Source: Endomicrobiia bacterium
GTDB lineage: Bacteria > Elusimicrobiota > Endomicrobiia > DTEH01
Reading direction: 5' to 3'
DNA: 64,000 nucleotides
Assembly (NCBI GenBank): GCA_039630545.1
Contig: JBCNUU010000002.1
Location: 31,984-95,983, forward strand
The position numbers and the translations under genes were made by a program. The notes beneath the pieces were generated by a model. That model searched no databases and had not been told where the DNA came from. It saw only the letters and a program-made list of their open reading frames with translations. Positions 12,885 through 40,598 of the stretch are shown in pieces; positions within the stretch are counted from its first letter, which is position 1, and every line of letters starts with the position of its first letter.

Positions 12885-15034
12885 TATATTTAGTTTTATT
12901 TTTAAACATATTTTTAATATATCTTTACTGCAGTTTTCCAACAATTGCAGCTTATCGTGACTCAGGAGAAATGGCAACAGTAAGTTACATCTTAGGAATA
13001 CCACATCCACCTGGTTATCCACTTTATACTATTTTAAGTTACTTGCTAAGTAGAATGTTAAAATTTGGGAATTTTGCTTATAGAGTTAATGTTCTATCTG
13101 GAATTTTTTCAGCTTTAACAGGAATAATTTTGTTTCATTTGTTTAATAAGTTTACGTTTTACATACTTCCTAAGAAAGAGAATGAAAAGTTTTTCTGGTT
13201 ATTTTTTAATTATATGACTATTTTATGTTTCAGCTTATCTTATCTCCAATGGTACTTATCAGTAGTTTCTGAAATGTATACTCTTAATACCTTATTTGCT
13301 ACTTTTATGATATTTTTGACTTTTTTATATTATACTATAAAAAACAATAAAGTTATTTACTTATTATTTTTTATATTTGGTTTGGGTATTACAAATAGAT
13401 TAGATTTAATACTATACTCTCCTTTGATATTATTTATATTGATTGATCATTCAAAGTTTAGAATTGATAAAAAAGTTTTAATGTTATTGACTTTATTTTT
13501 ATTAGGATTAAGTTGTTATATGTATCTACCTATAAGATCATCTAATGAACCACTAATAGATTGGAACAATCCTCAGAAACTTGATAGATTCTGGGCTTCC
13601 TTAACAAGGAAAACGCATGGTTCTACATTAGATCTTATATCATCTGGATATAAACCATTTGAAAATTTTAAAGATGGTATGATATTTTATTTTAGAAGAA
13701 CTTTAGAGAATTTAGGATTGATAGGAATTATTCCAGTAGTGTTAGGAATTAACTTAAAATCACATTTTGGAATATCTTTGTTTTTAAGTTGGTTTTTAAG
13801 CTCTGTCTATTTTATCTACAAGGCTAATATGCCTCCAAATCCTCATGCCTTAGCTATCCTTGAAGCTCATTTTTTGTTACCTAATTTGATAGTGTGGGTG
13901 TGGTTTATTTTAGGAATTACTTATGTTTATAAAAAAATCAAACTGAAATATTTTATCTTTGTTGCAGTATCTTTTATTTTAGTATTTAATATTTTTAAAA
14001 ATCATAAAAAATTAAACAAAAGAAATAACTTCTATGCTTATGATTACACTGTTAATATATTAAGAACTTTACCAAATAAAAGCATAGTAGTAGTTAAAGA
14101 AGATGTCCAGTTATTTTCTTTATGGTATAGTAAATTTGTAGAATCAAAAAGAAAAGATGTATATGTTATAGCTGCAGGACTTGCGGGTTCAAGTTGGTAT
14201 CAAGAAATGACTAAAAGGTTCTTTGAAGATGAGATTTTTTTACTTCCACTAACTACTTCTGATAACTGGAGCAATTTTATTGATAAAAATCTCAAACTTG
14301 GTTATAAAATTTTTGTGACCTATGATGTAGAACTTCCTGAAATTAAAAATTTTATTCTTAAACCATATGGTTTGGTATTGAGAGTCTTACCGTTTCAAGA
14401 AAATTTATTGGAAAATTTTTTCACTGATTTTTTCTTTGAATTCTTATACATATTTAGAGGAGATTACACATATAATTTAGAATTTGATTTTTTTTCTTCA
14501 GATTTAGTTGAAGATTACAGTAAATCTCTGCTTAATAGTGGACATTGGCTTACAAAATATAAACTATATAATTCTAAAAAAGTTGAAAATTTTTATAAAC
14601 ATTCTATTTTTATGAATTCTGTTTATCCTTACGGTTATTTTGAACTTGGATATCTTTATTATTTAAAAAATTTGCTTAAGGATTCTTACATATGGTATAA
14701 AATAGCGGCTAAAAAGTTTGAAGAATATATAGAATTAGCCTATAAATATAAAGCCTTTAAAGAAGTTATAGATGAAATAAAATCTAACACTGCTAATTGT
14801 TACTTACATTTAGGCGTTGTAGCAGAAAAACTCAATAATTTAGAAACCTCAATAGAATTTTACAATAGAGCCTTATATTTCAACCCCTATCTGGCAGATG
14901 CTTATTATAATTTAGCTGTGGTTTACTGGAAAAAACTAGATTGGCAAAAGGTTCGTTATTACTTACAGAAAACCTTAATTATTAATCCATATCATAGTCA
15001 GGCTAAATATTTCATTGATAAACTACCAAAATGA
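12881..15034 (+). CDS. DUF2723 / TMEM260-like GT-C glycosyltransferase with TPRs (paralog 3)
   Basis: RDSGEMATVSYILGIPHPPGYPLY, SEMYTLN, DWNNP; TPRs. Confidence 0.87.
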   Translation: MIYLVLFLNIFLIYLYCSFPTIAAYRDSGEMATVSYILGIPHPPGYPLYTILSYLLSRMLKFGNFAYRVNVLSGIFSALTGIILFHLFNKFTFYILPKKENEKFFWLFFNYMTILCFSLSYLQWYLSVVSEMYTLNTLFATFMIFLTFLYYTIKNNKVIYLLFFIFGLGITNRLDLILYSPLILFILIDHSKFRIDKKVLMLLTLFLLGLSCYMYLPIRSSNEPLIDWNNPQKLDRFWASLTRKTHGSTLDLISSGYKPFENFKDGMIFYFRRTLENLGLIGIIPVVLGINLKSHFGISLFLSWFLSSVYFIYKANMPPNPHALAILEAHFLLPNLIVWVWFILGITYVYKKIKLKYFIFVAVSFILVFNIFKNHKKLNKRNNFYAYDYTVNILRTLPNKSIVVVKEDVQLFSLWYSKFVESKRKDVYVIAAGLAGSSWYQEMTKRFFEDEIFLLPLTTSDNWSNFIDKNLKLGYKIFVTYDVELPEIKNFILKPYGLVLRVLPFQENLLENFFTDFFFEFLYIFRGDYTYNLEFDFFSSDLVEDYSKSLLNSGHWLTKYKLYNSKKVENFYKHSIFMNSVYPYGYFELGYLYYLKNLLKDSYIWYKIAAKKFEEYIELAYKYKAFKEVIDEIKSNTANCYLHLGVVAEKLNNLETSIEFYNRALYFNPYLADAYYNLAVVYWKKLDWQKVRYYLQKTLIINPYHSQAKYFIDKLPK

Positions 15035-22312: not shown

Positions 22313-22341
22313 TTGACATTTTTTAAATTTATATATATAAT
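22313..22341 (+). promoter_or_regulatory. Consensus sigma70 promoter
   Basis: TTGACA(22313-22318)-17 nt-TATAAT(22336-22341), a perfect consensus, in an intergenic gap heading a tightly packed five-gene run. Confidence 0.8.
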
Positions 22342-22381
22342 AACTATAGAAAAGCAAAGCTACGGATATTTAAAAACAAAA

Positions 22382-22825
22382 ATGAAAAAACATTATATTT
22401 ATCGTTTTTTTTATTCTAAAAATATAATTTACATTTTTTTTACTTTAAATTTTTGTATATTAATGTTACTACACTTTTCTTATTCTGAAAGTTCTATTTT
22501 TGATAAAACAATTGTAAATTATACAACTTTTTTACACGAAGGACTTTTAGAAGAACCAAATATTGTTTTTACCAATTTCCCTAATCCCTTTAATAGGTAT
22601 ACTTATATCTACATAAAATTTCCTTATGTTAGCAGCTGTGTATTAAGTATCTATGATTTGTTAGGCAACAAAGTGAAAGAATTTATTTTAACAGAAAATT
22701 CTGAATATCTTATAAAATGGAATGCAACAAATAATAATTCACAAAAAATTTCAACAGGTGGATATATCTGTGTGCTGATGTATAAAAACAGAAAGCTAAT
22801 AAGAAAAATAGGATATACAAGATGA
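22382..22825 (+). CDS. Small exported protein, mostly a T9SS type-A CTD / FlgD-Ig-like domain
   Basis: Hydrophobic N-terminus; NFPNPFN...LSIYDLLGNKVK...WNATN...STGGYI...RKIGY. The track's TTG start at 22313 is the -35 box, so ATG 22382 is used. Confidence 0.72.
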   Translation: MKKHYIYRFFYSKNIIYIFFTLNFCILMLLHFSYSESSIFDKTIVNYTTFLHEGLLEEPNIVFTNFPNPFNRYTYIYIKFPYVSSCVLSIYDLLGNKVKEFILTENSEYLIKWNATNNNSQKISTGGYICVLMYKNRKLIRKIGYTR

Positions 22826-24396
22826 CGAAAATTATTAAAAGAATCATTTTAATATTATTAGGAGCGAATTTTCAATATATATATTCTACTTATACTGGAG
22901 GACAGCCTGGAGAATTTTTGAATTTTGGTGCTTCTGCAAAAGCAATGGCAATTAAAAGTTTCTTTTCTATTTCTAATGATGCTTCGGCTGGATATTACAA
23001 TCCCGCTGGTCTTGTTCAATGCGATAAAAAAGAAATCACTGCCTTGCATACAGAACTTTTTCCAAATACTCAAACTATTTACGATTACATAGGTTTCGTA
23101 TATCCAACAATAAAATATGGTGTGTTCTCTTTAAGTCTGGTGCAGTTGCTTTCTTTGAAATTCGAAAAAATTATAGTAGAATTTGATCCTTCTGGTTCAG
23201 GTGATATAATAAATATTCAACACCAAGGATATTTTGATGATAGACAAATAGGAGTGATATTAAGTTACGGAAAAGAAGTTGTAGAACATATAAATGTGGG
23301 AACATCTTTAAAATATATCACAAGAAAACTGGATATTCATTCAGACACAATGGTAAGTCTTGATGTTTCTGTCTTAGTAATTGGAATAAATTCAAAATTA
23401 CCTTTTTTAAACTTTGCAGCTGGTATTAAAAATCTAATCTCAGCATCAATGAATACAGAAGATAAACTCCCATTAATTTTCAAAATAGGTGGTTCTTATA
23501 GATTTTTAAGAGAAAAATTAATTGTGGGAGTGGATTTAGAAAAAAATGTTAACTCAGAATTCAAATGGATGGTTGGGATAGATTACTGGATATTAACTTT
23601 TTTAGCTTTAAGATTAGGTTTTGAAGGGTTAAGTTATTTAAAAGAAACCACAGCTGGTTTGGGGTTCAAATATCGTGACTACTCTGTAGATTACTCATTT
23701 GGTTACCATGAGTTAGGTTTTTCTCATAGAATCTCTGCTAATATGAAATGGGGAAAATCTGTAAAATTTGACAAGGAAGAAACGATAAAACGCTTTGTAA
23801 ATGAAGCTATAGCAAGATATACCACCGGTCAGTTCTTAGAGGCAACTAAAAGTTTACAATTAGCTTATCAGATAGATCCTAATAAAAAAGAAATTAAAAA
23901 AATGCTTGATAATTTACTTATGATTACAGCATACATTCAAAGAGCCACAGAAGATACAGAAGAACATCAGGGAATAAGAAAAGCTGTTCAAGCTTTAATG
24001 GAAGGTGATTTAACTACTACGGTGAATTCTTTAAGATATGCTTATTACAAAAATCCTGCAAATAAAACTCTTTTACAATTACTAAATCGTATGGAACAAC
24101 TAGCAGGTATGCCTTTAACAGAACCTTATAAAGAAGAAATTGCAGGCTGGACCATAATAGATAAAAAAATATATGAAGCAAGGGAAGATGTCTTAAATGG
24201 AAGATATACTGATGCAATAAGAAAGTGTCAAGAAATACTTAATTTAGAACCTAAAAATACAACTGCTATGGAGATTATGGGTTCAGCTTTCTTTATGATG
24301 AATGAAATTGAAAAAGCAAAAGCTATATGGAAAAAGGTATTAGAACTTGATCCTACAAATAAAGTAGTACAGCAATTTTTAGAAGAGTTAGAATAA
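22822..24396 (+). CDS. PorV/PorQ-family (UPF0164-like) outer-membrane barrel fused to C-terminal TPRs
   Basis: Signal peptide; FLNFGASAKAMA...NDASAGYYNPAGL; barrel ends VDYSF...HRISANMKWG; then about 210 aa of TPR helices. Confidence 0.82.
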   Translation: MTKIIKRIILILLGANFQYIYSTYTGGQPGEFLNFGASAKAMAIKSFFSISNDASAGYYNPAGLVQCDKKEITALHTELFPNTQTIYDYIGFVYPTIKYGVFSLSLVQLLSLKFEKIIVEFDPSGSGDIINIQHQGYFDDRQIGVILSYGKEVVEHINVGTSLKYITRKLDIHSDTMVSLDVSVLVIGINSKLPFLNFAAGIKNLISASMNTEDKLPLIFKIGGSYRFLREKLIVGVDLEKNVNSEFKWMVGIDYWILTFLALRLGFEGLSYLKETTAGLGFKYRDYSVDYSFGYHELGFSHRISANMKWGKSVKFDKEETIKRFVNEAIARYTTGQFLEATKSLQLAYQIDPNKKEIKKMLDNLLMITAYIQRATEDTEEHQGIRKAVQALMEGDLTTTVNSLRYAYYKNPANKTLLQLLNRMEQLAGMPLTEPYKEEIAGWTIIDKKIYEAREDVLNGRYTDAIRKCQEILNLEPKNTTAMEIMGSAFFMMNEIEKAKAIWKKVLELDPTNKVVQQFLEELE

Positions 24397-24408: not shown

Positions 24409-26304
24409 ATGAAATTATTGAAAAAACTCTTTAAATTTTATATAAAATTTCATACAAAAATGGGCAAATTTAAATTTTCAATTCCTTTTCTACTCATCAT
24501 ACTTTCTTTTGATTTATTCAACCAAACAATAGCTACTTTGCCTTCTGAACAGCAGATTTCACCTATTATGCTAATTGAATATGAAACAAAACTGGAACAA
24601 CAAAAAACAGAATACGTACAAAAAAACATACTTGATAAAATTTTCGGTCCTAATAAATCCACAGTGATGATAGATATAACATTAGGTTTAAGAACCACTA
24701 CAACTAAACAACAAGCTTCTGAGAAAAAAATTGATGCAAAACGAAAACTTGGTGAAACAGAATATTTGTTACCTGGAATTCCTAAACCAGGATCTATTAC
24801 TGAGTCTGCTGTTCCAGCTGAAGCTAAGGGTGAAGCTTCTGGAACAGAAGTAGTAGGAGTTAAAACTGAAATAGTAATTGAAAGACAAAATGTAACTGTA
24901 ATATATGATGAAAAAATAAAAGATGAAAAGGTAGAAATAGCAAAAGAGTCAATTATTTCTACTCTTGGCATAAAAAGACCTCAAGATATAGTATTTAAAA
25001 AAGCAAAATTCAAAACAGATCTTTTAAATAAATTCTTAGAAAACATTGTTTTACCTAAGTATTTTATTCCTTTATTGATTACTCTGCTTCTGCTTGCATT
25101 TTTGTTTGGTCCGATAGCTAATTTTTTAAAAAATTATTTAAGAATGTTAAAAGAACGAGCACCTACTGAAATTTCAATAGACTCAAAACTTGCCCGTGAA
25201 GGAGAAACTCCTGAAGGAGAACTTACAGCAGAAAAAGCAACAAGTGGAATCGGTTTATCTGGAGGGCAGTTTGAATCACAGTTTACAGGAAAAGAAAAAG
25301 AAAAGGAAAAAGAGGAAGAAAAGTATATCCCATTTAGCTACATTAATGATGATAATATAAAAAGACTAACATATCTTATAGCAAAAGAAAAACCAGAAGA
25401 TATAGCAATTGTTCTGAGTTATTTAAAACCCGAATATGTTAAACAAATTATAGAAAGTTTTAAACCACACCTTCAGGCCAAAGTGGCTTTAGCTTTAGCT
25501 CAAGCTAGAGAAATTCCACAAGAAGAAGTTATAAGAATGGACAATTATGTAAAAGAAAGAATAGATTTTCTAGTTGGAGGCTTACATCATCTTATTGAAC
25601 TTCTACAGAAGGTAGACAAAACTACAAGAAACAATATCCTTGAATATTTAAAAAACGAAAAACCAGATATCTACAATAAAGTGAGACCTCAAATATTTTT
25701 GTTTGAAGATATTTACGAAATCCCAGATGTTACCTTGCAGGTTATCATAAGAGAACTAAAACCTGAAAATATAGCACGTGCTTTAAGAAATGCGCCACAA
25801 AACTTAATAGAGAAGTTTTTTAAAAATATGTCAGAAGGAGCACAGGCTTTGGTAAAAGAAGAAATGGAATATGGCAGACCTATGACTAAAGAACAGATTG
25901 AAGAAGAACAAAATAAAATATTAGAAGTTATAAGAAAATTAGAACAAGAAGGAAAAGTATATTTAAAAGAAAAAGAAAAAACTTTTTTAATTGATGCTTC
26001 AGAAGTAATGGTATTAACACCCAGAAAAATAGAAGACTCACCTGGATATGAGTATTATATTACAGCAACAGAATTATATCAACAAGGTAATTATGAAGAA
26101 GCCTTTAATTATTTCTCATATGCTACAGAATTAGATCCTCAATTATATGAAGCATATCAATATATGGGAAACATCCTATACGAGTCAGGCAGATACAATG
26201 AAGCACTTTCCTATTATAAAAAAGCCTTGGAATTAAATCCTCAAGATCAAGAACTTGCTAAATGGATAGAAGAGATAGAAAAAAATATATCTTTAACAAT
26301 TTAA
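24409..26304 (+). CDS. Membrane protein with FliF-C-like ring motif, TM, FliG middle and C-terminal domains, and TPRs
   Basis: FliG-like motifs PFSYI, EKPEDIAIVLSYL, GG linker, IFLFEDI, LQVIIRE, FFKNMS..., QNKILEVIRKLEQEGKV; N-terminal split ring-motif-like segment; TM YFIPLLITLLLLAFLFGP. Confidence 0.8.
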   Translation: MKLLKKLFKFYIKFHTKMGKFKFSIPFLLIILSFDLFNQTIATLPSEQQISPIMLIEYETKLEQQKTEYVQKNILDKIFGPNKSTVMIDITLGLRTTTTKQQASEKKIDAKRKLGETEYLLPGIPKPGSITESAVPAEAKGEASGTEVVGVKTEIVIERQNVTVIYDEKIKDEKVEIAKESIISTLGIKRPQDIVFKKAKFKTDLLNKFLENIVLPKYFIPLLITLLLLAFLFGPIANFLKNYLRMLKERAPTEISIDSKLAREGETPEGELTAEKATSGIGLSGGQFESQFTGKEKEKEKEEEKYIPFSYINDDNIKRLTYLIAKEKPEDIAIVLSYLKPEYVKQIIESFKPHLQAKVALALAQAREIPQEEVIRMDNYVKERIDFLVGGLHHLIELLQKVDKTTRNNILEYLKNEKPDIYNKVRPQIFLFEDIYEIPDVTLQVIIRELKPENIARALRNAPQNLIEKFFKNMSEGAQALVKEEMEYGRPMTKEQIEEEQNKILEVIRKLEQEGKVYLKEKEKTFLIDASEVMVLTPRKIEDSPGYEYYITATELYQQGNYEEAFNYFSYATELDPQLYEAYQYMGNILYESGRYNEALSYYKKALELNPQDQELAKWIEEIEKNISLTI

Positions 26305-26322: not shown

Positions 26323-29300
26323 ATGAGTATATTTGACAAAATTAAAATTAAATTTTCTCAACAAGATGTCCGAAAGAATGAAATCAGTAATAACACTGAT
26401 TTAGCTAAATCTTCCTGCGTTTCTGCTACTTCACAAAAAGAATCACAAGAAGATTTATCTATGCTTAAAGAAAATCTATTAGCGGAATTCCATTATTTAG
26501 AACAAAAAATACAACAAGAAAGGGAAGAATTGCTTTCAAGGTTAAATTCAAAGGAAGAAGAACTTGTTTCTTTAGAAATGAAATTATCTTCATTAGAATA
26601 TAAAATAAATTTTAATAAAATAGATTTTGGGAAAGAGATTGAAAAAATTAAAAATCAAATTAGTGCTGAATTAGAAAAACTTAATGAAGAATATAATATT
26701 GAAATAACTAAATGGCAAAAAAAATTAGAAAACAAATCCAATGAGATTGAGCAGCTAAGAAACAAAATCATATTAGAAGAAACACAAAATAAAATGCTTA
26801 CAGAACAAAAAAAGCAAGAATGCAAACAAGAAATTGAATTTCTTAATAACAGGGTAGAAAATTTGAAAAAACAATTAGAAGAAGAAAAAGAAAAATTTTT
26901 AAAAAGGATAAACGAAAAAGATGAAGAAATATTGAAATTGAAATCGCTGATAGAGTTAAAAGAAAAACAACTAAAAATAGAAGAAGAAAAATATTTATTG
27001 TTAGCTAAAGATCTTAATGAAAAAAGAATTACTCAAATCTCTGAAATGCAGAGAAAATTTGATGAAAAAATTGAAAATTATAAAAAACTTTATAAAGCAA
27101 AAGAAGAAGAATATTTCACGATAAAAAACATTCTAGAGCAGAAATATCAAGAATGGCAGCAACAACAGGAAGAAATTGTAAGTAATCTACAAAATAAAAA
27201 ACGATTATATGAAGAAAAAATAAATGAATTATCTCAAGAAGTAGAAAAAATAAAAAAAGAATATGAAACAATAATTTTACAAAAAGAAGAGGAAATTAAA
27301 AAATTAAAAGTAGAGATAATGTTAAAAGAAACACAACAAAATGCACTAATAGAGCAAAAAAAGAAAAGTCTAATAGATGAAGAACAAAAGATTCATCAAC
27401 AGATTTGTGAACTAGAACAAAAGTTTATAAAAGAATATGAAAATTACAACAAACTAATTAAAGATAAAGATCAGGAAATAATACAACTGCAAATTTTATA
27501 TCAACAAAGAACTTCGCAGCTAAAAGAAGAATGGGACAAAAAAATAAAGAAACTTCAACAGGAAAAAGAAAACTTAGAAAAAGAAATAATAGATTTAACA
27601 AATTTACTAGATACTACAAAAAATAAGTTTTTTAAAATAATTGAGGATAAAAAAGATTACATCAGAACACTTAAAAAACAATATTATGAAAAAACAGAAA
27701 TTTTCAAAAAACAATTTGAAGAATTAATAGAAAAAGCACTCAAAGAAAAACAACATCTTGAAGAGGAATATAAAATAAAAGAAAAAGAATTTACAACCAG
27801 AAAAAATGAATTAGAAGCAATTTTAAAGAAAAAAGAAGAAGAGATACTTTATCTTAATTCTAAAATTGAAGCTGAAATTGAAAATCATCAAAAGAAATTG
27901 CTCTTACTTCAAAAGCAATTTGAATATGAAAACAGACCACTTTATATTCGAATTTCTAAACTAAAAGAAGAAATAAAAAACAAAGAGGCTAAGTTAAAAG
28001 CATTCATTGAGAAAAAGGATAAAGAAATAGAACAAATTGTAAAAGATTATGAGAATTTTAAAAATGAAGCTGAAAAAAGACATTTAGAAAAAATAAATGA
28101 GATAGAAAATCGCAAAAAACAATATGAAACAAAGATATTCAATTTACAAAATACATTATTAGAATACGAAACTCAATTTAAAGAAAAAATAGCTCAGTTA
28201 GAAGAAAAACTTCAACAAGCCACTAAAGAATTATCTAATATAGAAGAAAATTTTGAAAAAGAAAAACAAAAAATCATTGAAGCTAATAAAGAAGAAATTA
28301 AAAAAATAGAAACAGAAATAGCAAGTTTGCAAAGCAAAATAAATGATTTATCAGAGTATCAAACTAAAATTGAGCAAGAAAAAAATACAGAGTTAAATGA
28401 ATGGAAAAACAAATTAGAAAGTTTAAAACAACTAAAAGGAAAAGAATTAGAAGATCTTCAAAAAAATGCAGAAAAAGAGTATTTAAAATATGAACAGGAG
28501 TTAAAAAATATAGAAGAAAAGATTTCTTATAAGAAAAAAGAATACGATAAAATTTTATATGAAAAACAAAAGAATTTAGAAACTTTAATAAGCAATTTAG
28601 AACAAAAAAAATTAACTTATGAACAACAGTTATTGGATTTAAAGAAGCATTGGGAAAACAATCTGACACCTTTAATAAATAAGAAAAAAGAATTACAAAA
28701 TGAGGTTATTTTATTAGAGACAAATAGTAAAAATTTAATAGAGAATTATATAAAAGAAATAAATGACTTAAAATTAGCATATGAAGAACAACAGAAAACT
28801 TACCAAATTCAAGAGAATCAAAAAAAAGAAGAAATTAAAAAAATAAAACAAGAGCTTTTTGAAAAAATTAAAAATAAGCAGCAAGAAATAGAAGAAATCA
28901 CACAATTCTATACTCAAAAATTATCAGAACTCGAAAACAACAAAAACAATATAATATTCCAGAATAAAAAAATTTTGGAAAATTTAGAATTAGAAAAGGA
29001 AAAAGTAAATAATGAATTTGAAAATAAAAAAAGAGAACTACAAAAAGAAATAGAAAATTTAGAAAATAAAATAGTAGAAATAAATCATACTATCAAAATT
29101 CAAACGGATGAAAAAGAAAAAGAAAAAGAATCTTTAATTATACAACTGAAAGAATTACAAAAAGAAAAAGAAGCAAAACTTTTTAAACTGCAGAAAACTT
29201 CAGAACTCATATCAGATCGCTTAGAAAGGAGAATCAAATTTTATACTGAAACATTAAATTCTTTAAGAAATGAATATGAGAAGTTAATTTCTCAAAAACA

Positions 29301-31134
29301 ACAAGAATTAGAATTTGTTTTATCAGAATGGAAAGATAAAGAATCAACAATTATAAACGAAATAAATGAACTGGTAGAAAAGAAAACCAAAGAAATAGAA
29401 AATTTACAAATTCAAAAAGAACAATTATTAGAAAAAATTTCTAAAATAGAAAAAGAAGGAAAAGAAACTATAGAAAACATTCAAAATGAAATTTCAAAAC
29501 TTAAATCTGAGATATCTTCTAAAAAAGAGTTATTTGAACAAGAATGGAGCTTAAAACAACAAGAATTTGAAGAATTAAAATCATCTTTTTATTCTGAAAT
29601 TTCAAATCTTAAATCAAAAATTAACTTAGAAGCAGATGAATATAAACTTAAACTGACAGAAAAAAATCAAGCTATATCTACCTTAAAACAAGAATACGAA
29701 GGAAAATATAACCAACTTTTAAATGAATATAACAATAAAAAGAAAGAATTTGCTGTAAAAATTGAAAAATTAACTTCTCAAATAAATTCGTTAGAAGAAG
29801 AACTCTCATTAAAACAACAAGAATATAATAGATTAAAAAGAGATAAAGAAGAAGAACTCAAGGAGTTAATATCTAAATTTTCAGATTTAGAACTAACAAT
29901 TAAATTAGAAGAAGAAAAAAGGACAAAACAATTAGCCGAACAGAAAGAAAAATTTGAAAAAGAAATAGAATATTATAAATCTCAGCTCGAAAAACAAAGG
30001 AAAGAATATTTGGAAAAACTTAACCTCCTCTTTGTTGAAGAACAAAGAATAACACAACAATATAATGAATTGGAAAAACAACTTTCTCAACAACTCTTAG
30101 AAGAAGAAAAAAATTATGAAATAAAGAAAGAAAATTTACAAAAAGAAATTAAATTACTTCAAGATAAAATAAAAAATATAGAGTCTGAAAATGAAAGTTT
30201 AATAAAAGAATTGCAAAAAGAAATAGACAATATTAAAACAAAAATTGCTTTAAAAGAAATAGAAATAGCATCTGCAAAAAATAAATTAAATTTTGAACTT
30301 AAAAAATTTGTTTCAGATTATGAACAAAAAAAAGATAAAATAATAAAAGAATTCAACAAGGAAAATATGGAAATTTTACAAAGAATTAAAAACAAAGAAG
30401 ATGAAATAAATACATTACAAACAAGATGTTCTTTAAGAAATCAAGCAATATTAGAAGAAAAAAGAAGAAGAGAAGAATTTATGGAAAGAGAAATCAAAAA
30501 AATAATGGATGAATTAAAAGAAATCGAAACAAATTATAAATCAAAAGAAAACTATTACAAAAATCGTATTCAACATTATAAAGAAAATATTGAACTTTTG
30601 AAACAACAACTTCAAATTTTGCTACAAAACTGGGAAGACGAAAAAAATAAAATGTTGTCAAAGAAAGAATCACATAAAAAACTATTAAATGAAGAGATAA
30701 ATATGTTAAAACAAAAATTAAATGAGTATAAATATATCATTAATGCTTTAGTTGAAAAAATAGAGTCAAAACTAAAATTAGAAAATGAACTTTTAGAAAT
30801 AAAAGATTCAGAACTTATAAAAGAAAAAGAAATTACACAATATGTGATGGAAAAGATCTTCTCAACCGTACCAGGAAAAAAATTTAAAGATAAAATTGAT
30901 AAAACTCAGCTATATAAAGCAATAGATCTATACAATGCACAACAATATGATATAGCATTGAAAGAATTTTTGAAGTTGCTAGCAGATGATGAAAATAACG
31001 AAATTGTCAATCAATACATTAGTTTATGTTATTATAATCTAAATGATATCCAAAATGCAAAAAAATATGCTTTAAAAGTGTTAGAAATTAACCCAGAAAA
31101 TAATGCAGTTAAAAATTGGCTTAAAGAAATATAA
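26323..31134 (+). CDS. Giant coiled-coil protein (1603 aa) with 61-residue repeats and C-terminal TPR
   Basis: K/E/Q/L-rich, almost no Pro or Gly; no Walker motifs; SD GGAGGAG; C-terminal TPR. Confidence 0.85.
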   Translation: MSIFDKIKIKFSQQDVRKNEISNNTDLAKSSCVSATSQKESQEDLSMLKENLLAEFHYLEQKIQQEREELLSRLNSKEEELVSLEMKLSSLEYKINFNKIDFGKEIEKIKNQISAELEKLNEEYNIEITKWQKKLENKSNEIEQLRNKIILEETQNKMLTEQKKQECKQEIEFLNNRVENLKKQLEEEKEKFLKRINEKDEEILKLKSLIELKEKQLKIEEEKYLLLAKDLNEKRITQISEMQRKFDEKIENYKKLYKAKEEEYFTIKNILEQKYQEWQQQQEEIVSNLQNKKRLYEEKINELSQEVEKIKKEYETIILQKEEEIKKLKVEIMLKETQQNALIEQKKKSLIDEEQKIHQQICELEQKFIKEYENYNKLIKDKDQEIIQLQILYQQRTSQLKEEWDKKIKKLQQEKENLEKEIIDLTNLLDTTKNKFFKIIEDKKDYIRTLKKQYYEKTEIFKKQFEELIEKALKEKQHLEEEYKIKEKEFTTRKNELEAILKKKEEEILYLNSKIEAEIENHQKKLLLLQKQFEYENRPLYIRISKLKEEIKNKEAKLKAFIEKKDKEIEQIVKDYENFKNEAEKRHLEKINEIENRKKQYETKIFNLQNTLLEYETQFKEKIAQLEEKLQQATKELSNIEENFEKEKQKIIEANKEEIKKIETEIASLQSKINDLSEYQTKIEQEKNTELNEWKNKLESLKQLKGKELEDLQKNAEKEYLKYEQELKNIEEKISYKKKEYDKILYEKQKNLETLISNLEQKKLTYEQQLLDLKKHWENNLTPLINKKKELQNEVILLETNSKNLIENYIKEINDLKLAYEEQQKTYQIQENQKKEEIKKIKQELFEKIKNKQQEIEEITQFYTQKLSELENNKNNIIFQNKKILENLELEKEKVNNEFENKKRELQKEIENLENKIVEINHTIKIQTDEKEKEKESLIIQLKELQKEKEAKLFKLQKTSELISDRLERRIKFYTETLNSLRNEYEKLISQKQQELEFVLSEWKDKESTIINEINELVEKKTKEIENLQIQKEQLLEKISKIEKEGKETIENIQNEISKLKSEISSKKELFEQEWSLKQQEFEELKSSFYSEISNLKSKINLEADEYKLKLTEKNQAISTLKQEYEGKYNQLLNEYNNKKKEFAVKIEKLTSQINSLEEELSLKQQEYNRLKRDKEEELKELISKFSDLELTIKLEEEKRTKQLAEQKEKFEKEIEYYKSQLEKQRKEYLEKLNLLFVEEQRITQQYNELEKQLSQQLLEEEKNYEIKKENLQKEIKLLQDKIKNIESENESLIKELQKEIDNIKTKIALKEIEIASAKNKLNFELKKFVSDYEQKKDKIIKEFNKENMEILQRIKNKEDEINTLQTRCSLRNQAILEEKRRREEFMEREIKKIMDELKEIETNYKSKENYYKNRIQHYKENIELLKQQLQILLQNWEDEKNKMLSKKESHKKLLNEEINMLKQKLNEYKYIINALVEKIESKLKLENELLEIKDSELIKEKEITQYVMEKIFSTVPGKKFKDKIDKTQLYKAIDLYNAQQYDIALKEFLKLLADDENNEIVNQYISLCYYNLNDIQNAKKYALKVLEINPENNAVKNWLKEI
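26551..30591 (+). repeat. Degenerate in-frame tandem repeat, 61 aa (183 bp), about 23 units
   Basis: KxxE(I/L)-type anchor at residues 77, 138, 199, 260, 321, 382, 443, 504, 565, then in the same register at 687, 748, 992, 1114, 1175 and 1358. Confidence 0.8.
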
Positions 31135-31153: not shown

Positions 31154-33586
31154 ATGGATGAAATAAATAAACCACAAATACCCAAACCACCTCTTCCTTC
31201 TAATAAACCATCGGGGCCTAAACTGCCTGTTGGGAACGATAAACAAGTTAATTTACCATTTAAAAAAACAACTCAACCGCAAATTAGTACTCCTTCTAGG
31301 AGTATATCGAGTAGTTCTTCAACTACTCCACCACAATTTTCTTCATCTATAGAACAAAGATTATGGGAAGCAGAACAAGCAAAAAGACAAATGGAAATTC
31401 AACTGCAAGAATTGCAAAGAATGTTACTTGAAGAACGGGAAAAACTTATAATGCAAACAATGAAAACAAAAGAAGAAGAAGCACTCGCTGCAAAAGTTGA
31501 AGAGAGTATAAAAGACATACAGGAAAGATTAAGAAGAGAAAAAAGAGAACAAGAACTGAAAGAAGAAAAAGAAAAACTCTTAAAACAGATAAAAGAACTT
31601 GAAGAACGACTGGCAAAAGAAAGAGAAACGTGGATAGAAACTTTAAAGACCCAGATGTCTCAAAGAGATCTCCAAGACCAGCAAATTGAACAGCAGTTTA
31701 TTGCTAAAATAAGAGATATAGAAGCACGTTGGCAGGAAGAAAAAACTAAATTTCAGTTAATTCTTAAAAATAAAGATGAAGAAATAAATAGAATTAAAAA
31801 TGAATATAAAGTTTTGGAAGAAAAACTTAAAGCAGATTTTGAAAAACAAATTGCAGAATATAAATTCCAGTATAAGAATTTTGAGAATGAAATAAAACAT
31901 TTAAAAGAGGAAATCACTGAAAAAGAAAAAGAGATTCTTGCATTGAAATCTACAATTGCCACAATGCAATCTGAGTCAAACATATCTAAGGATAAGTTTA
32001 ATTATGAAATTAAAAAGAGAGAAGAACAAATTATCAAATTACAAAATTTAATTGAAAATTTAAAAGCAGAATTACGAATCATCAAACAGGAAAGAGAACA
32101 AAAAGAAAAAGACTTTTTTTTATTAAAAACACAAATAGGAATACTGCAGGCACGTCATAAAATAGAAATTGATAAAATTATTCAACAAAAAGAAAATGAA
32201 ATAAAAGAACTTAAAAAATCGTTCGAAAAATTGCAAAATGAATTGCAAGCTAAAGTGCTTATATTCAATGAATTAGATGAAAATAACAAAAAATTAAACG
32301 AAGAAATAAAACAAAAGGATATTATGATCTCTAAGAAAGAACAAGAAATCTATAACCTTTCTCAAGAGAAAGAGTTATTACTTCACCAATTAGAAGAAGA
32401 AAGACAAAAATTAGAAAGTTTAAATAAAGAATATAATACTGTCGTATCACACTTTAAAGAAATGTGTGCTATTAAAGAAACCGAGATAGAAAAATTAACT
32501 AATGAATTAAATAAATATGTCAATATGTACCACGAAATTAAATCTGAATTTTTAAAATATAAACAAAATTTCTATAATGAAGTAGAAAAAAATGTAAATT
32601 TAAAAATTGAAGAATACAAAAAGTATATTTCACAAATCGAAGATACAAATAAACATTTATTCTTAGAGATAGAGGAAAAAGAAAAAATAATAAATGAGAA
32701 TATCTCTAAATATCAAGATATGAAACACAAATATGAAGAATTAGTATGTAAATACGAAAACGAAATAAAAAATATTGAAAATGTAAAACAAAATTATGAA
32801 AACAAAATAAAAGAGTTACATACAGCTAACAGTTTATTAGTAACTGAAAAAGAAGAATTACAATCTCAGATAACACATCTGAAAGATAAATTGTTTAATT
32901 TGGAGAAAATAAATGAATTATATATAGAGTTAAAGAAAAATTACGAAGAATCTCTACAAAAAATAAAATCTCTTGAAGAAGAAAAAAACAAGCTAAAAGA
33001 ATCACAAAAAGAGATAGAAAATTTAAATTTATTAATAACTGAACTAAAAAAAGAAAAGGAACTTTTGGAAACAAAATTTAAAGAATTGGAATTACAAACT
33101 AAAAATTATATTGCTCAACAGCAACAATTATATGAAAAGGAAAAGTATAATTTTGAACAACAAATAAATGAGTTAAACAAACAAAACAAAGAAAAAGAAA
33201 AAATTATCACAGAATTAAATTCTAAATTACTTCAATACGAAGGCGATAAAAAACGATTAGAAAAAGAATATGACTTAAAAATACAAGAAATAATAAAACA
33301 GCATGAAGAAACTATAGATAAAATAGATTTTACCTGGAAAGAAATTCATAATAAACTTTTAAAAGAATATAAAGTATTAGAAGATACAATTTCTCAAAAA
33401 GATGAAGAAATAGCAAAATTAAAATCGCGTCTGGAAACATTAATTTTAGCACAAAATATAAAAAACAATAATATAAAATACGAAGATCCAAAAATTCTTG
33501 AAGAAAAACAGATAAGTCAAAAACAAAAAAGAAAAATATTTTCAAAAATATGGTCATGGTTGTATAAACCTATTTTAAAAATATAG
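31154..33586 (+). CDS. Coiled-coil protein (810 aa) with Pro/Ser-rich N-terminus and amphipathic C-terminal helix
   Basis: KPQIPKPPLPSNKPSGPKLP N-terminus, about 700 aa of coiled coil, ends RKIFSKIWSWLYKPILKI. Confidence 0.82.
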   Translation: MDEINKPQIPKPPLPSNKPSGPKLPVGNDKQVNLPFKKTTQPQISTPSRSISSSSSTTPPQFSSSIEQRLWEAEQAKRQMEIQLQELQRMLLEEREKLIMQTMKTKEEEALAAKVEESIKDIQERLRREKREQELKEEKEKLLKQIKELEERLAKERETWIETLKTQMSQRDLQDQQIEQQFIAKIRDIEARWQEEKTKFQLILKNKDEEINRIKNEYKVLEEKLKADFEKQIAEYKFQYKNFENEIKHLKEEITEKEKEILALKSTIATMQSESNISKDKFNYEIKKREEQIIKLQNLIENLKAELRIIKQEREQKEKDFFLLKTQIGILQARHKIEIDKIIQQKENEIKELKKSFEKLQNELQAKVLIFNELDENNKKLNEEIKQKDIMISKKEQEIYNLSQEKELLLHQLEEERQKLESLNKEYNTVVSHFKEMCAIKETEIEKLTNELNKYVNMYHEIKSEFLKYKQNFYNEVEKNVNLKIEEYKKYISQIEDTNKHLFLEIEEKEKIINENISKYQDMKHKYEELVCKYENEIKNIENVKQNYENKIKELHTANSLLVTEKEELQSQITHLKDKLFNLEKINELYIELKKNYEESLQKIKSLEEEKNKLKESQKEIENLNLLITELKKEKELLETKFKELELQTKNYIAQQQQLYEKEKYNFEQQINELNKQNKEKEKIITELNSKLLQYEGDKKRLEKEYDLKIQEIIKQHEETIDKIDFTWKEIHNKLLKEYKVLEDTISQKDEEIAKLKSRLETLILAQNIKNNNIKYEDPKILEEKQISQKQKRKIFSKIWSWLYKPILKI

Positions 33587-37884: not shown

Positions 37885-39708
37885 ATGAAAAATTTTATTA
37901 TTTTAGCTTTTGTAGTTACTACATTTGCTTTAAAAATACATCCCACAGTTATCCATCTCTCCGGAAAAAGAATTAAAAATCAACCAAAAAGTAAAGTAAA
38001 AATTTATAATAAACTTTCATCTTATGAATTTAACCAGTCAATTTTCAAAGTAGAACCATTAAATACTACAGGGAAGAAAAAAATTGCAGTAATAGTTGTA
38101 GACTTTCCTGATAAAAGTTTTTCTTATGGCTGGCATGAACAAGCAAATGAAACATTTTCTCAATTTGTGAATTACTATTTAGAGGTTTCCTACAATAAAT
38201 TTCAGCTTGATTATACATTTTTTTATGATGGTGGTACTACCAAAACATTAACGGGGCAGGAACATCCATATAGACTGTCAAATAATATGGAATATTATGG
38301 ACAAGATACAGAAGAAAGTTTATCTCAACTAATAAAAGATGCGATTTTAGCTGCTGGGACAGAAGTAAATAAATTAAACTATGATTATGTAATGGTATTA
38401 CATGCAGGTTACGGCAACGAATCTACCAACAACTCAGAAGATATCTGGTCTGTATATATTGACTGGGAGATCCCAATAAATGGTTTCACAGATGGTACTA
38501 TAGTTCCTGAAAAAGAGTATGGAGCTTCTCCTGTAGGTGTAGTATGTCATGAGTTTGCTCATCAACTGGGTCTTCCTGATCTTTATTACGACCAGGAAAG
38601 CATTGTGGGTTGCTGGTGTTTGATGGATAATGGTGTATGGTTAGGAAATCCCCAAGGTTCAAAACCATCGCATTTATGTTGTTGGGCAAAGTATTTTTTA
38701 GGCTGGATTGATGTAAAAGTTGTTTCCTCAACTTTAAAAAATGTTTATTTAGAAAATATAGAAACTTCTTCTACTGCCATAAAAGTAAAAATACTGACAG
38801 CAAATAATCCAGATAAAGAATATTTTTTGTTAGAATATAGAACAAAAACAGGCTTTAACGAAGGACTTCCTGGAAGTGGACTTTTGATATGGAGAATAGA
38901 TGATGAGATAGCCACATCACCTGTAAGATTAAAAAATAATGACATTAATTCAGGAACACCTCATTTAGGTGTAGACTTAATAGCTGCCGATAGAAGTGTT
39001 TATGGGAAAAATAAAAACGACGCGGGAGACCCTTTTCCAGGAAGCAGTAATGCAGCTAACTTTATACCTCAGTATTATAATATAGTTGCCTACAACGGTC
39101 AGCCTATAAATGTTAACATAACAGAAATTACTCCTCTTATTAACTTTGTTAAGTTTAACATAGTATCAGTGTCCGGCTTATTAGTAAAGGCAACAACTTT
39201 GGATGGGACTCTTTTAAGTAATGTAAAAGTCAATGTTTACAATAATTGGTATTCTACTTTCAGTTTTACATCAAATGGTTTTTGTATGATAGAACTTTCA
39301 ACTGGGATCTGGAATTTACATTGTAACCTGGAGAATTATCTGGAATATAAAGACAACTTTGTAGTATATGAAGATAGATTAACTTTAAAAGATATTTTTT
39401 TAAGATATGATCCAAGATTAGTATTAAACAAAAATGAGTTTGTTGTTGGAAACAATTATGCTGACATTAATAAATTTTCTAAAATTTCTTTCAGGTATAA
39501 AATCAATTCGCCTTCAGAAGTAAAAATTATGATATTTGATTTATATGGTAATTTGATAAAAATGATCCAAAAATATCATTCTTTGGAAGGATGTTATGAA
39601 GAATTAATAGATGTAAACGAAGAAAAACAACTATCTTCAGGATTGTATTTTGTGTGTTTTAAATCAAATGATACAACTATTATAGAGAAATTCATAATTC
39701 AAAAATGA
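37885..39708 (+). CDS. M6-family (immune inhibitor A-like) metalloprotease with T9SS-CTD-like C-terminus
   Basis: VDFPD, HAG, HEFAHQLGLPDLY, WCLMDNG, EYFLLEYR, GLLIWRID; C-terminus IFDLYGNLIK...LSSGLYFV...EKFIIQK. Confidence 0.88.
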   Translation: MKNFIILAFVVTTFALKIHPTVIHLSGKRIKNQPKSKVKIYNKLSSYEFNQSIFKVEPLNTTGKKKIAVIVVDFPDKSFSYGWHEQANETFSQFVNYYLEVSYNKFQLDYTFFYDGGTTKTLTGQEHPYRLSNNMEYYGQDTEESLSQLIKDAILAAGTEVNKLNYDYVMVLHAGYGNESTNNSEDIWSVYIDWEIPINGFTDGTIVPEKEYGASPVGVVCHEFAHQLGLPDLYYDQESIVGCWCLMDNGVWLGNPQGSKPSHLCCWAKYFLGWIDVKVVSSTLKNVYLENIETSSTAIKVKILTANNPDKEYFLLEYRTKTGFNEGLPGSGLLIWRIDDEIATSPVRLKNNDINSGTPHLGVDLIAADRSVYGKNKNDAGDPFPGSSNAANFIPQYYNIVAYNGQPINVNITEITPLINFVKFNIVSVSGLLVKATTLDGTLLSNVKVNVYNNWYSTFSFTSNGFCMIELSTGIWNLHCNLENYLEYKDNFVVYEDRLTLKDIFLRYDPRLVLNKNEFVVGNNYADINKFSKISFRYKINSPSEVKIMIFDLYGNLIKMIQKYHSLEGCYEELIDVNEEKQLSSGLYFVCFKSNDTTIIEKFIIQK

Positions 39709-40598
39709 ATAGAATCAACAAATTACTTTTTATAACTTTATTATTGATTTATTTTAACAGAATATATCCTGACACCAGCACAATAAATATACCTACCTGT
39801 AAAACAATTGGGTTAGCAAATGAAGTTTCTACTGTAGATAATAGTGGGTTTAGTATAATAACTAATCCCTCATTATTAAGTGACTTAAAAAATTTCTATA
39901 GTTTTGAATATGCTAAAATCTTCTACTATAGCAAAACTACTTATGATCTTTTGAGTATAGCTTCAAACACTTTCAACAAAATTGGGATAGGATTAGTTTT
40001 TGGAAGATTTTCTTCTGGTGAAATACAAATAAGAAATATAGATGGCATTTTAACAGGAGAATCATTTGAATATATGTATAGTATGTTCTCTTTAGGAGTT
40101 GGTGTAAAACTAATAGATGATATTTATCAAACTTTCCAGGCAGGTTTTAGCGGTTATACTTTTTTAGAAAAGATATATTCAGATAAAATATATTTTGGGT
40201 TTAATAACGGTGTAGCTTATGATTTAAAATTTAAAAATAAATTCCTGAAGTTATTAAGAATAGGCATTGTGATAAAAAAGTTAAGCATAAGCAAAAATTT
40301 TGTTTATAATATAGGCTTGGGATTAAAACTTCCAGAAAGCATGTTAATGGTAGGATATGAGGACATATTTCCTGAAGGAGCAACAAAATACAGAATTTCT
40401 TCTTCCTTTAATGTTTATACTTCAAAAGATTTTAAGAAGGTTCTTAAATTAAATTTAGGTTATGTGTTTAATTCAGATGTTTATAATATAAGCAGTGGAA
40501 TAGAACTTGAAGTTTATAACTTTTTAATATCATATTCATACAGCACTCATAAATATTTAAGTTCTATTTCTGCTATTCAGATAAGTTTTTTATACTAA
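39705..40598 (+). CDS. Divergent PorV/PorQ-like outer-membrane beta-barrel protein
   Basis: Signal peptide; KTIGLANEVSTVDNSGFSIITNPSLL resembles the PorV N-terminal motif; alternating beta strands; aromatic C-terminus QISFLY. Confidence 0.6.
   Translation: MNRINKLLFITLLLIYFNRIYPDTSTINIPTCKTIGLANEVSTVDNSGFSIITNPSLLSDLKNFYSFEYAKIFYYSKTTYDLLSIASNTFNKIGIGLVFGRFSSGEIQIRNIDGILTGESFEYMYSMFSLGVGVKLIDDIYQTFQAGFSGYTFLEKIYSDKIYFGFNNGVAYDLKFKNKFLKLLRIGIVIKKLSISKNFVYNIGLGLKLPESMLMVGYEDIFPEGATKYRISSSFNVYTSKDFKKVLKLNLGYVFNSDVYNISSGIELEVYNFLISYSYSTHKYLSSISAIQISFLY

Follow-up and report, generated by a model that had tools for sequence, protein, structure and literature searches.

Gain and loss of a 61-residue coiled-coil repeat four units at a time suggest a molecular ruler or strut for a flagellum-free motor and secretion module of Elusimicrobiota

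Why should a coiled-coil rod of some 1400 residues keep an exact register? In long coiled coils, register and length usually drift. The question is raised by a gene at 26323..31134 (+) of a 64,000-nucleotide stretch of the genome of an uncultured Endomicrobiia bacterium, phylum Elusimicrobiota (GenBank assembly GCA_039630545.1, contig JBCNUU010000002.1, positions 31,984 to 95,983 of the forward strand; the whole stretch is called the window below). It encodes a 1603-aa rod protein, here named CC1, which matched no Pfam or NCBIfam family beyond its C-terminal tetratricopeptide repeat (TPR). An earlier note, made from the sequence alone, had proposed an exact 61-residue periodicity and read the strict unit length as a sign of lattice or filament packing, or of a ruler with periodic binding sites. 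Our results showed that, in several classes of one phylum, the CC1 family keeps this register along 1400 residues. In the full-length forms units were gained or lost four at a time, a pattern suggestive of a molecular ruler or strut that would serve an undescribed, flagellum-free motor and secretion module.

When the sequence was printed in rows of 61 residues, the positions 77+61n held every one of the 20 motifs indexed in the earlier note. Degenerate units occurred at 626, 870 and 1236, as it had claimed. Identity at lag 61 was 0.189 against a mean of 0.117 in shuffled controls (z 8.5; BLOSUM z 14.5; 60 shuffles), and the top four of 260 autocorrelation lags were 61, 183, 244 and 122. Because peaks near such lags would arise in every coiled coil whose beat is 3.59, a stricter null was employed, in which residues were permuted solely among positions of like helical angle and the hydrophobic beat of 3.588 was preserved. 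The mean identity at lags 61/122/183/244 was 0.197, against 0.158–0.163 under this null (z 7.1–8.4; BLOSUM z 9.8–11.4), and none of 300 shuffles reached the observed identity. The excess was repeated in all six orthologs tested. The 61-phase was identical in 12 of 12 sliding windows of CC1, and all 23 units scored 14–44 bits against a family profile that includes these units. The array extends over residues 77–1479 (26551..30759, +); it is as real as had been proposed, with an end slightly further downstream. The identity between units at the DNA level is low, again as reported before (0.455–0.469 at unit lags 1–8, versus 0.398 for codon-shuffled DNA). These results confirmed the 61-residue periodicity of CC1. 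Searches of the open-access literature revealed no account of a coiled-coil repeat of 61 residues or of CC1 itself; subscription papers, among them surveys of hendecad families, lay outside these searches.

The anatomy of the unit was derived from 465 units of 20 orthologs. Column 1 is dominated by Lys, and hydrophobic residues occupy columns 5, 8, 12, 19, 23, 26, 30, 37, 41, 44, 48, 55 and 59. With column 62 added, these are exactly the core columns of 4 heptads and 3 hendecads in 17 turns, the composition that had been predicted. The core is ordered as (11+7)+(11+7)+(11+7+7), i.e. 18+18+25 = 61, and the hydrophobic Fourier peak of CC1 was located at 3.588 = 61/17 (power 148; next 14). The core carries Ile/Leu at a and Leu at d, with charged residues in core layers. 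The hendecad d/e layers (columns 15/16, 33/34 and 51/52) are Lys/Glu, and Ala reaches 7% at most in any core column. Ile/Leu at a, Leu at d and charged core layers generally fit a two-chain coil, and the a/d residues suggest that CC1 may be a parallel dimer. By arithmetic (0.1485 nm per residue), one unit measures 9.1 nm and the rod about 208 nm, close to the 9 and 200 nm given earlier. The description of the coil as nearly unwound was overstated: at 3.63 residues per turn it still turns about -70 degrees per unit, by arithmetic approximately one third of the twist of a heptad coil, and it is weakly left-handed rather than unwound. A pooled test revealed no dominant attractive charge stagger (the best was about 3.5 standard deviations among hundreds, and not at 244), and the charge along CC1 had no strong Fourier period. 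Myosin-like electrostatic lattice packing is therefore unsupported.

Orthologs of CC1 were gathered via the upstream FliF-FliG gene and via a profile of the first 462 residues of the rod. The anchor set took proteins of 1500–2200 aa, and removal of one unrelated repeat protein and 10 near-duplicates left 47. Contig-edge fragments, L193/L266 (a gene broken by a run of N), five forms of 583–604 aa and two of 1170 aa had been left out beforehand. Leave-one-out profiles placed anchors in unit 2 and unit 21 in 45 of the 47 orthologs. The spacing between the anchors was exactly 1159 residues (19 x 61) in 29 of them; it differed by +244 in 7, by +488 in 1, by -4 in 7 (one clade) and by +1 in 1, and no difference of +61, +122 or +183 was observed among these 45 anchored full-length orthologs. 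The two proteins without a firm second anchor were L054, a split gene with +244 between units 5 and 17, and L086, which measured 1159 by a profile that included L086. The expectation that ortholog lengths would differ by multiples of 61 was correct as to whole-unit steps, but the full-length forms changed by multiples of 244 alone. The quantised length applies to the full-length class and not to every CC1 relative. A 1724-codon open frame in genome G257, considered as a +122 counter-example, was rejected; it has 23 units plus a long leader.

Across orthologs, CC1 units share only 17–36% identity, and to keep an exact spacing of 1159 residues at this level calls for purifying selection on the length. 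When the sequences were cut into pieces by register, these aligned gap-free (19 sequences, 18–61% identity; 31 sequences, 12–32%), although cutting to equal length favours such alignment and the anchor test is the real evidence. On the FliF-FliG tree the long forms occur in four places, requiring five changes by parsimony. On the CC1 tree (FastTree), long forms (27 or 31 units) occupy at least three separate parts and require at least four changes. If steps were uniform modulo four, the chance that 4–5 events are all multiples of four is 0.004–0.001 (arithmetic). The classes of 23, 27 and 31 units correspond to rods of 208, 245 and 281 nm.

The central zone of the array (units 8–15; 27832..29295, +) consists of two super-repeats of 244 residues, or 36.2 nm each, made of four unit types, A-B-C-D. 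The +244 and +488 insertions of the orthologs map to this zone, with insertion points estimated within units 9–14. Its first landmark is Pro539 in column 36 of unit 8 (27937..27939, +), which is Pro in 19/20 23-unit and 8/8 27-unit orthologs. Pro783 in column 36 of unit 12 (28669..28671, +) lies 244 residues further and is Pro in 15/20 23-unit orthologs. The 27-unit orthologs carry the column-36 Pro in units 8, 12 and 16 (8/8, 6/8 and 6/8), and the 31-unit ortholog in units 8 and 20 only. Nearly all prolines stand in one of two columns, 36 (60 cases) or 56 (24 cases); the one in column 56 of unit 14 is found in 24/29 orthologs but is missing from the CC1 of the window. In a monomer model of units 8–12, the helix passes through both CC1 prolines uninterrupted. 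This model comprises two long helices and, at 150–157, a low-confidence turn; the arrangement was taken as a substitute for a partner chain introduced by the modelling.

The super-repeat is visible beyond the prolines. After the common 61-profile was removed, the residual correlation between units 7–16 peaked at lag 4 (0.149, versus -0.03 to 0.05 at other lags). Profiles of the A-B-C-D types, built from the 23-unit forms alone, assigned the expected slot to 86 of the 112 central units of the long forms, where about 28 would be expected by chance. Protein L247 has a recent tandem duplication of four units (37–57% identity at lag 4). Protein identity at unit lag 4 was slightly raised (0.179 versus 0.151–0.171); DNA identity at the same lag was not clearly higher (0.469 versus 0.455–0.463). 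Recombination therefore has no evident ground for preferring four units, and this result favours selection over a recombination bias as the cause of the four-unit step. The earlier interpretation is partly supported: a step of 36 nm, not of 9 nm, now appears to be the functional period, which sharpens the 9-nm repeat into a hierarchical 9-nm/36-nm design. A match to MreB filaments was also tried. With the subunit spacing of MreB, 244 residues would span seven subunits, and the 34.9-residue harmonic of hydrophobicity had about 10 times the median power; a peak of this size is, by estimate, expected by chance among 366 frequencies and 6 features, and the match was rejected. MreB is also present in G008, a genome where the CC1 module was not found.

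The two ends of CC1 differ from the rod. Residues 1–11 form a Phe/Lys motif (26323..26355, +) that recurs in the N-termini of orthologs, where it is followed by a leader of variable length (7–125 residues). It is a candidate amphipathic membrane anchor, with a hydrophobic moment of just 0.34, and no signal peptide was visible at the N-terminus of CC1. The C-terminal TPR domain (30907..31131, +; Pfam TPR_2 at residues 1565–1593, E 4e-5, below cut-off) is present in most orthologs.

The rod was explained by no Pfam or NCBIfam model and by no solved structure. Matches in the ESM Atlas were TPR clusters only, below 0.9. Lamin coils weakly matched the profile of the CC1 N-terminal part in a PDB sequence search (E 3e-4 to 4e-3), which was set aside as generic coiled-coil likeness. 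Word-index homolog searches with CC1 returned 3 and 13 proteins, the second set mostly unrelated coils, and eukaryote-like matches with repeats of 63, 74, 147 and 155 residues were dropped, their periods being unrelated. Two unrelated giant proteins, P0036 and P0041 (6436 and 3763 aa), have strong 63-residue coiled-coil repeats. A membrane-anchored member of the repeat family was found outside the module: an 895-aa protein (L252:6289-8973, G047:C127) with an N-terminal TM-like segment and about ten 61-type units, the last of which resemble units 21/22.

CC1 belongs to a tightly spaced run of genes on the same strand, which starts at a sigma-70-like site and ends with a second coiled coil, CC2. 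The site (22313..22341, +) matches the consensus perfectly (12/12) and is the sole such site among 84; the overall site count was at chance level, and the match is not evidence of function. Near-consensus sites were found upstream in 8/20 related loci. The small protein at the head (22313..22825, +) has a domain like the C-terminal sorting domains of type IX secretion systems (T9SS), and its true start is probably downstream of the promoter-like site. In many relatives (L250:1-5358, L257:2-11644 and others), a giant protein with a shared basic C-terminal motif replaces it before the barrel. The barrel gene follows (22822..24396, +) and encodes a PorV/PorQ-family barrel fused to TPRs (NF033709, 95.7 bits, cut-off 90). 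Between it and CC1 lies a fusion (24409..26304, +) of a FliF-RBM3-like ring domain, a TM segment, the FliG middle and C-terminal domains (Pfam FliG_M, FliG_C) and TPRs. The top PDB sequence matches of its periplasmic part were FliF and SpoIIIAG, and the model of this part matched MS-ring chains of FliF (E 9e-8 to 1e-3).

CC2 (31154..33586, +) has a Pro-rich N-terminus and a Trp/Lys amphipathic C-terminus, whose hydrophobic moment is up to 0.66. It carries a few 61-type units near the N-terminus and no long period. Two segments of CC2 reached 32 and 23 bits with the 61-profile, and CC1 versus CC2 was not significant by BLASTP (E 0.18); paralogy of the two is a lead. The CC2 rods expand by lineage-specific repeats. 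One CC2 ortholog (L062:9844-13083) repeats exactly every 91 residues, a period of its own (z 14 at lags 91 and 182), and others (L037:11103-14375, L033:5433-8129, L084, L087-L089) have periods of 39/99/138, 28, or 11/29/40 residues. Coiled coils of about 610–816 aa also stand beside polA (L044:8557-10368, L047:9430-11274 and, in the genome of the window, L253:6728-9175). Two of these have an 89-residue period (89/178/267 in L047), and they lie near a cassette of MotA/MotB/FliF-FliG paralogs.

Gene order was compared in 46 distinct loci. Directly upstream of CC1, 38 loci have FliF-FliG, 7 have the PorV-TPR gene and 1 reaches a contig edge; directly downstream, 35 have CC2, 9 end at an edge and 2 carry the second part of a split gene. 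These counts are inflated by the FliF-FliG anchor through which most loci were fetched. In genome G262, a single contig, a MotA gene lies about 1 kb from the FliF-FliG ortholog itself. The genome of the window contains, elsewhere, a four-gene cassette made up of a second FliF-FliG fusion without TPR, MotA and two OmpA/MotB-type genes (L049:10524-14231, G000:C2). Other variations were seen around the module. In family f30 (L064:8980-10719, L065:6659-7900), the FliF-FliG fusion is separated from the 1170-aa rod by an extra charged low-complexity gene. In family f24, proteins of about 650–730 aa (L069:3594-5624, L075:3688-5700, L077:243-2189, L081:14111-16054) are encoded a few kb from the module, with an N-terminal motif that we take to be GYF_2-like. 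The window itself also holds three tandem TMEM260-like O-mannosyltransferase-TPR genes (8816-15034), a peptidase of the M6 type whose C-terminal domain is sorting-like, with a weak second PorV/PorQ-like gene behind it (37885-40598), and a 1733-aa open reading frame without Pfam match (42863-48064).

The distribution of the module was surveyed in 251 genomes of the phylum, a comparison free of FliF-FliG anchor bias. All of the 23 genomes with a CC1 match below 1e-30 also carry the FliF-FliG fusion. Most fusion-bearing genomes have CC2 without CC1. Two large families, probably gut-associated lineages, are nearly devoid of the fusion (1/85 and 0/70), and CC1 was found in neither. G008 belongs to the same family as the genome of the window and is 95% complete. 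It keeps both flanking blocks mid-contig and one MotA-like gene; CC1, CC2 and the FliF-FliG fusion were not found there. G002 was not counted as a loss of the module, as its flanking genes are also missing. FlhA and flagellin were found in 0/5 genomes, including that of the window, with 4/14 controls positive.

We propose, with a probability of about 45%, that CC1 forms a cytoplasmic strut or track of two chains, anchored in the membrane and belonging to the barrel-rotor-CC2 module, and that the 36-nm super-repeat of this rod has to keep step with a periodic partner. CC1 would be a parallel coiled-coil rod of about 208 nm (in some relatives 245 or 281 nm). Its N-terminal Phe/Lys helix would fix it to the inner membrane, and its C-terminal TPR would grip a partner. 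It could act as a measured strut or track for the envelope machine encoded alongside, which would comprise a FliF-FliG rotor ring with MotA/MotB stators, the PorV/PorQ-like barrel with its cargo, and CC2. The 61-residue unit would set the core and place a KExEI..LK stripe on the surface each 9 nm, and the four unit types, A with a proline kink, would build the 244-residue, 36-nm super-repeat. If the super-repeat must match a periodic partner, only whole super-repeats could be gained or lost.

Several observations weigh against this proposal. The 36-nm partner of CC1 is so far hypothetical. The register has exceptions, namely the -4 slip in one clade (7 proteins) and the +1 in L102. The 1170-aa relatives drift in phase, and those of 583–604 aa hold about 8 units, by inspection probably 16–23, which is not a loss of a multiple of four. 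The duplicated block of L247 lacks prolines, and L051 has them at 2 of the 4 expected places. Tree supports are low within the mixed 23/27-unit clade. At the ends of the protein, the TPR is unrecognisable in three orthologs (L040, L042 and L115), and the N-terminal moment is modest. The FliF-FliG fusion, found in 79/251 genomes, is far commoner than CC1 (23–26), therefore the motor does not need the rod. In family f26, CC1 comes straight after the PorV-TPR gene (7 loci) with FliF-FliG elsewhere (5/5 genomes checked), so that the tightest links of CC1 are to the barrel and CC2.

The same length steps can be read differently. CC1, alone or with CC2, could be a self-assembling polymer of the intermediate-filament kind, whose dimers, staggered by 244 residues, make 36-nm-striated filaments that would shape the cell or brace the envelope without touching the rotor. 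A stagger of one super-repeat accounts equally well for the steps, both CC1 and CC2 have candidate membrane-binding ends, CC1 stays with CC2 where FliF-FliG has moved, and the long bacterial coils FilP, Scy and AglZ make filaments or striated arrays, according to passages of PMC6599971, PMC2680258 and PMC3718342. We regard self-assembly as rather unlikely, since the charges of CC1 show no dominant attractive stagger, 244 included, and no strong period, and since CC1 is confined to genomes with the rotor fusion and, like the motor module, was not found in G008. Steps of 244 residues might instead be a legacy of mutation: an ancient block of four units was duplicated, slippage reuses the block, and the rod is an ordinary spacer of little-constrained length, in which 244 has no functional meaning. 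The slight rise of protein identity at lag 4 would fit, and the independent events are few (4–5), with the long forms of one clade possibly sharing an origin. However, DNA identity does not rise clearly at lag 4, the breakpoints are spread over units 9–14, the duplication in L247 is recent and separate, and 29/45 orthologs hold exactly 1159 residues at low unit identity. A purely mutational origin is thus unlikely.

A constraint on twist would be another cause of the four-unit step. Over four units the supercoil turns by -282 degrees if the helix has 3.63 residues per turn and by -348 degrees if it has 3.64, about one full turn, so that steps of 244 would keep the anchor and the TPR at the same azimuth, as in a torque-bearing shaft. 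The neighbouring gene encodes a rotor protein, and the block of L247 retains its length of 244 without prolines. But small changes of the helix period shift the sum widely (-80 to -414 degrees over 3.60–3.65), and a symmetric dimer would be restored by half a turn, which permits steps of about 122–150 residues, and none was seen. The -4 slip is tolerated in one clade, and the proline kinks and the length of 200 nm would argue against torsional rigidity. We consider this explanation improbable. A bolder form of the strut proposal is that CC1 is a hierarchical, nebulin-like ruler in a bacterium, in which a cytoplasmic track owes its spacing or reach to the proline-jointed 36-nm super-repeat and, with CC2, couples a flagellum-free FliF-FliG/MotAB rotary motor to a surface carrier of the PorV/PorQ type; this remains speculative, and we hold it to be doubtful.

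According to the preprint 10.1101/2022.07.08.499144, free-living Elusimicrobiota carry motAB and fliG without flagella, in a role that it calls unclear. The CC1 module gives a structural handle on that role. The length changes of CC1 in four-unit, 36-nm quanta marked by proline make a sharp, testable prediction. If the nebulin-like reading were true, free-living Elusimicrobiota would possess a hitherto undescribed machine for motility or secretion, with dimensions tuned in 36-nm steps across species.

Among known systems, Scy and FilP are closest in build, as very long (>1000 aa) bacterial coils with a regular non-heptad repeat that mixes hendecads. The earlier note had compared CC1 with the hendecad-rich repeat of Scy, and its figure agrees with the relevant passage of PMC3718342, where that repeat has 51 residues in 14 turns; the cores of Scy and FilP are Ala-rich according to an excerpt of PMC9858780, and striation and period background for long coils is provided by sections of PMC6599971 and PMC9369452. 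In contrast, CC1 has 61/17 (3.588, left-handed) instead of 51/14, Lys/Glu instead of Ala in the hendecad layers, a C-terminal TPR, a proline-marked four-unit super-repeat, and another phylum and gene context; no DivIVA-like domain was matched in CC1 by Pfam or NCBIfam. The intermediate-filament-like proteins of the crescentin and FilP type share a head, a long coiled-coil rod, a tail (here the TPR) and the lack of a catalytic domain, but the rod of CC1 is without non-helical linkers, with continuous register over 23 units and single prolines that cause no phase shift. No SMC model matched CC1, so neither the split ABC-ATPase head nor the hinge of SMC/Rad50-like proteins was seen.

AglZ, as described in portions of PMC11135422 and PMC2680258, is a long filament-forming cytoplasmic coil of the Agl-Glt gliding motor of Myxococcus, with a proline-rich stretch before the coil. 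CC1 would likewise be a long cytoplasmic coil tied to an ion-driven envelope motor, with the Pro-rich stretch here on CC2 and not on CC1. The motor parts differ, being FliF-FliG and MotA/MotB rather than Agl-Glt, and no receiver domain, a feature of AglZ, was matched in CC1 by Pfam. GYF_2 (PF14237), the domain of a GltJ-type partner, was found in 0/5 genomes, but also in 0/14 controls. The neighbours of CC1 are homologs or fold matches of flagellar FliF, FliG and MotA/MotB and of the PorV/PorQ carriers of T9SS; they differ from the flagellar set in that FliF and FliG are fused and TPR-tailed, and FlhA and flagellin were not found. Nebulin, the hierarchical ruler of muscle thin filaments, varies in length between species by whole super-repeats of about 38.5 nm through independent duplications and has conserved ends, according to PMC7754682. 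The likeness is one of logic alone: simple repeats are combined into super-repeats from distinct unit types, the ends are conserved, and lengths vary by whole super-repeats through independent events. This variation was found in CC1, apart from the -4, the +1 and the short forms; nebulin modules bind actin, while CC1 is a bacterial coiled-coil rod, and no homology is claimed. In conclusion, CC1 is Scy-like in build, AglZ-like in its proposed role and nebulin-like in logic, is by testable features a member of none of the Scy/FilP, AglZ and SMC families, and is best filed as a variant among the long non-heptad bacterial coiled coils.

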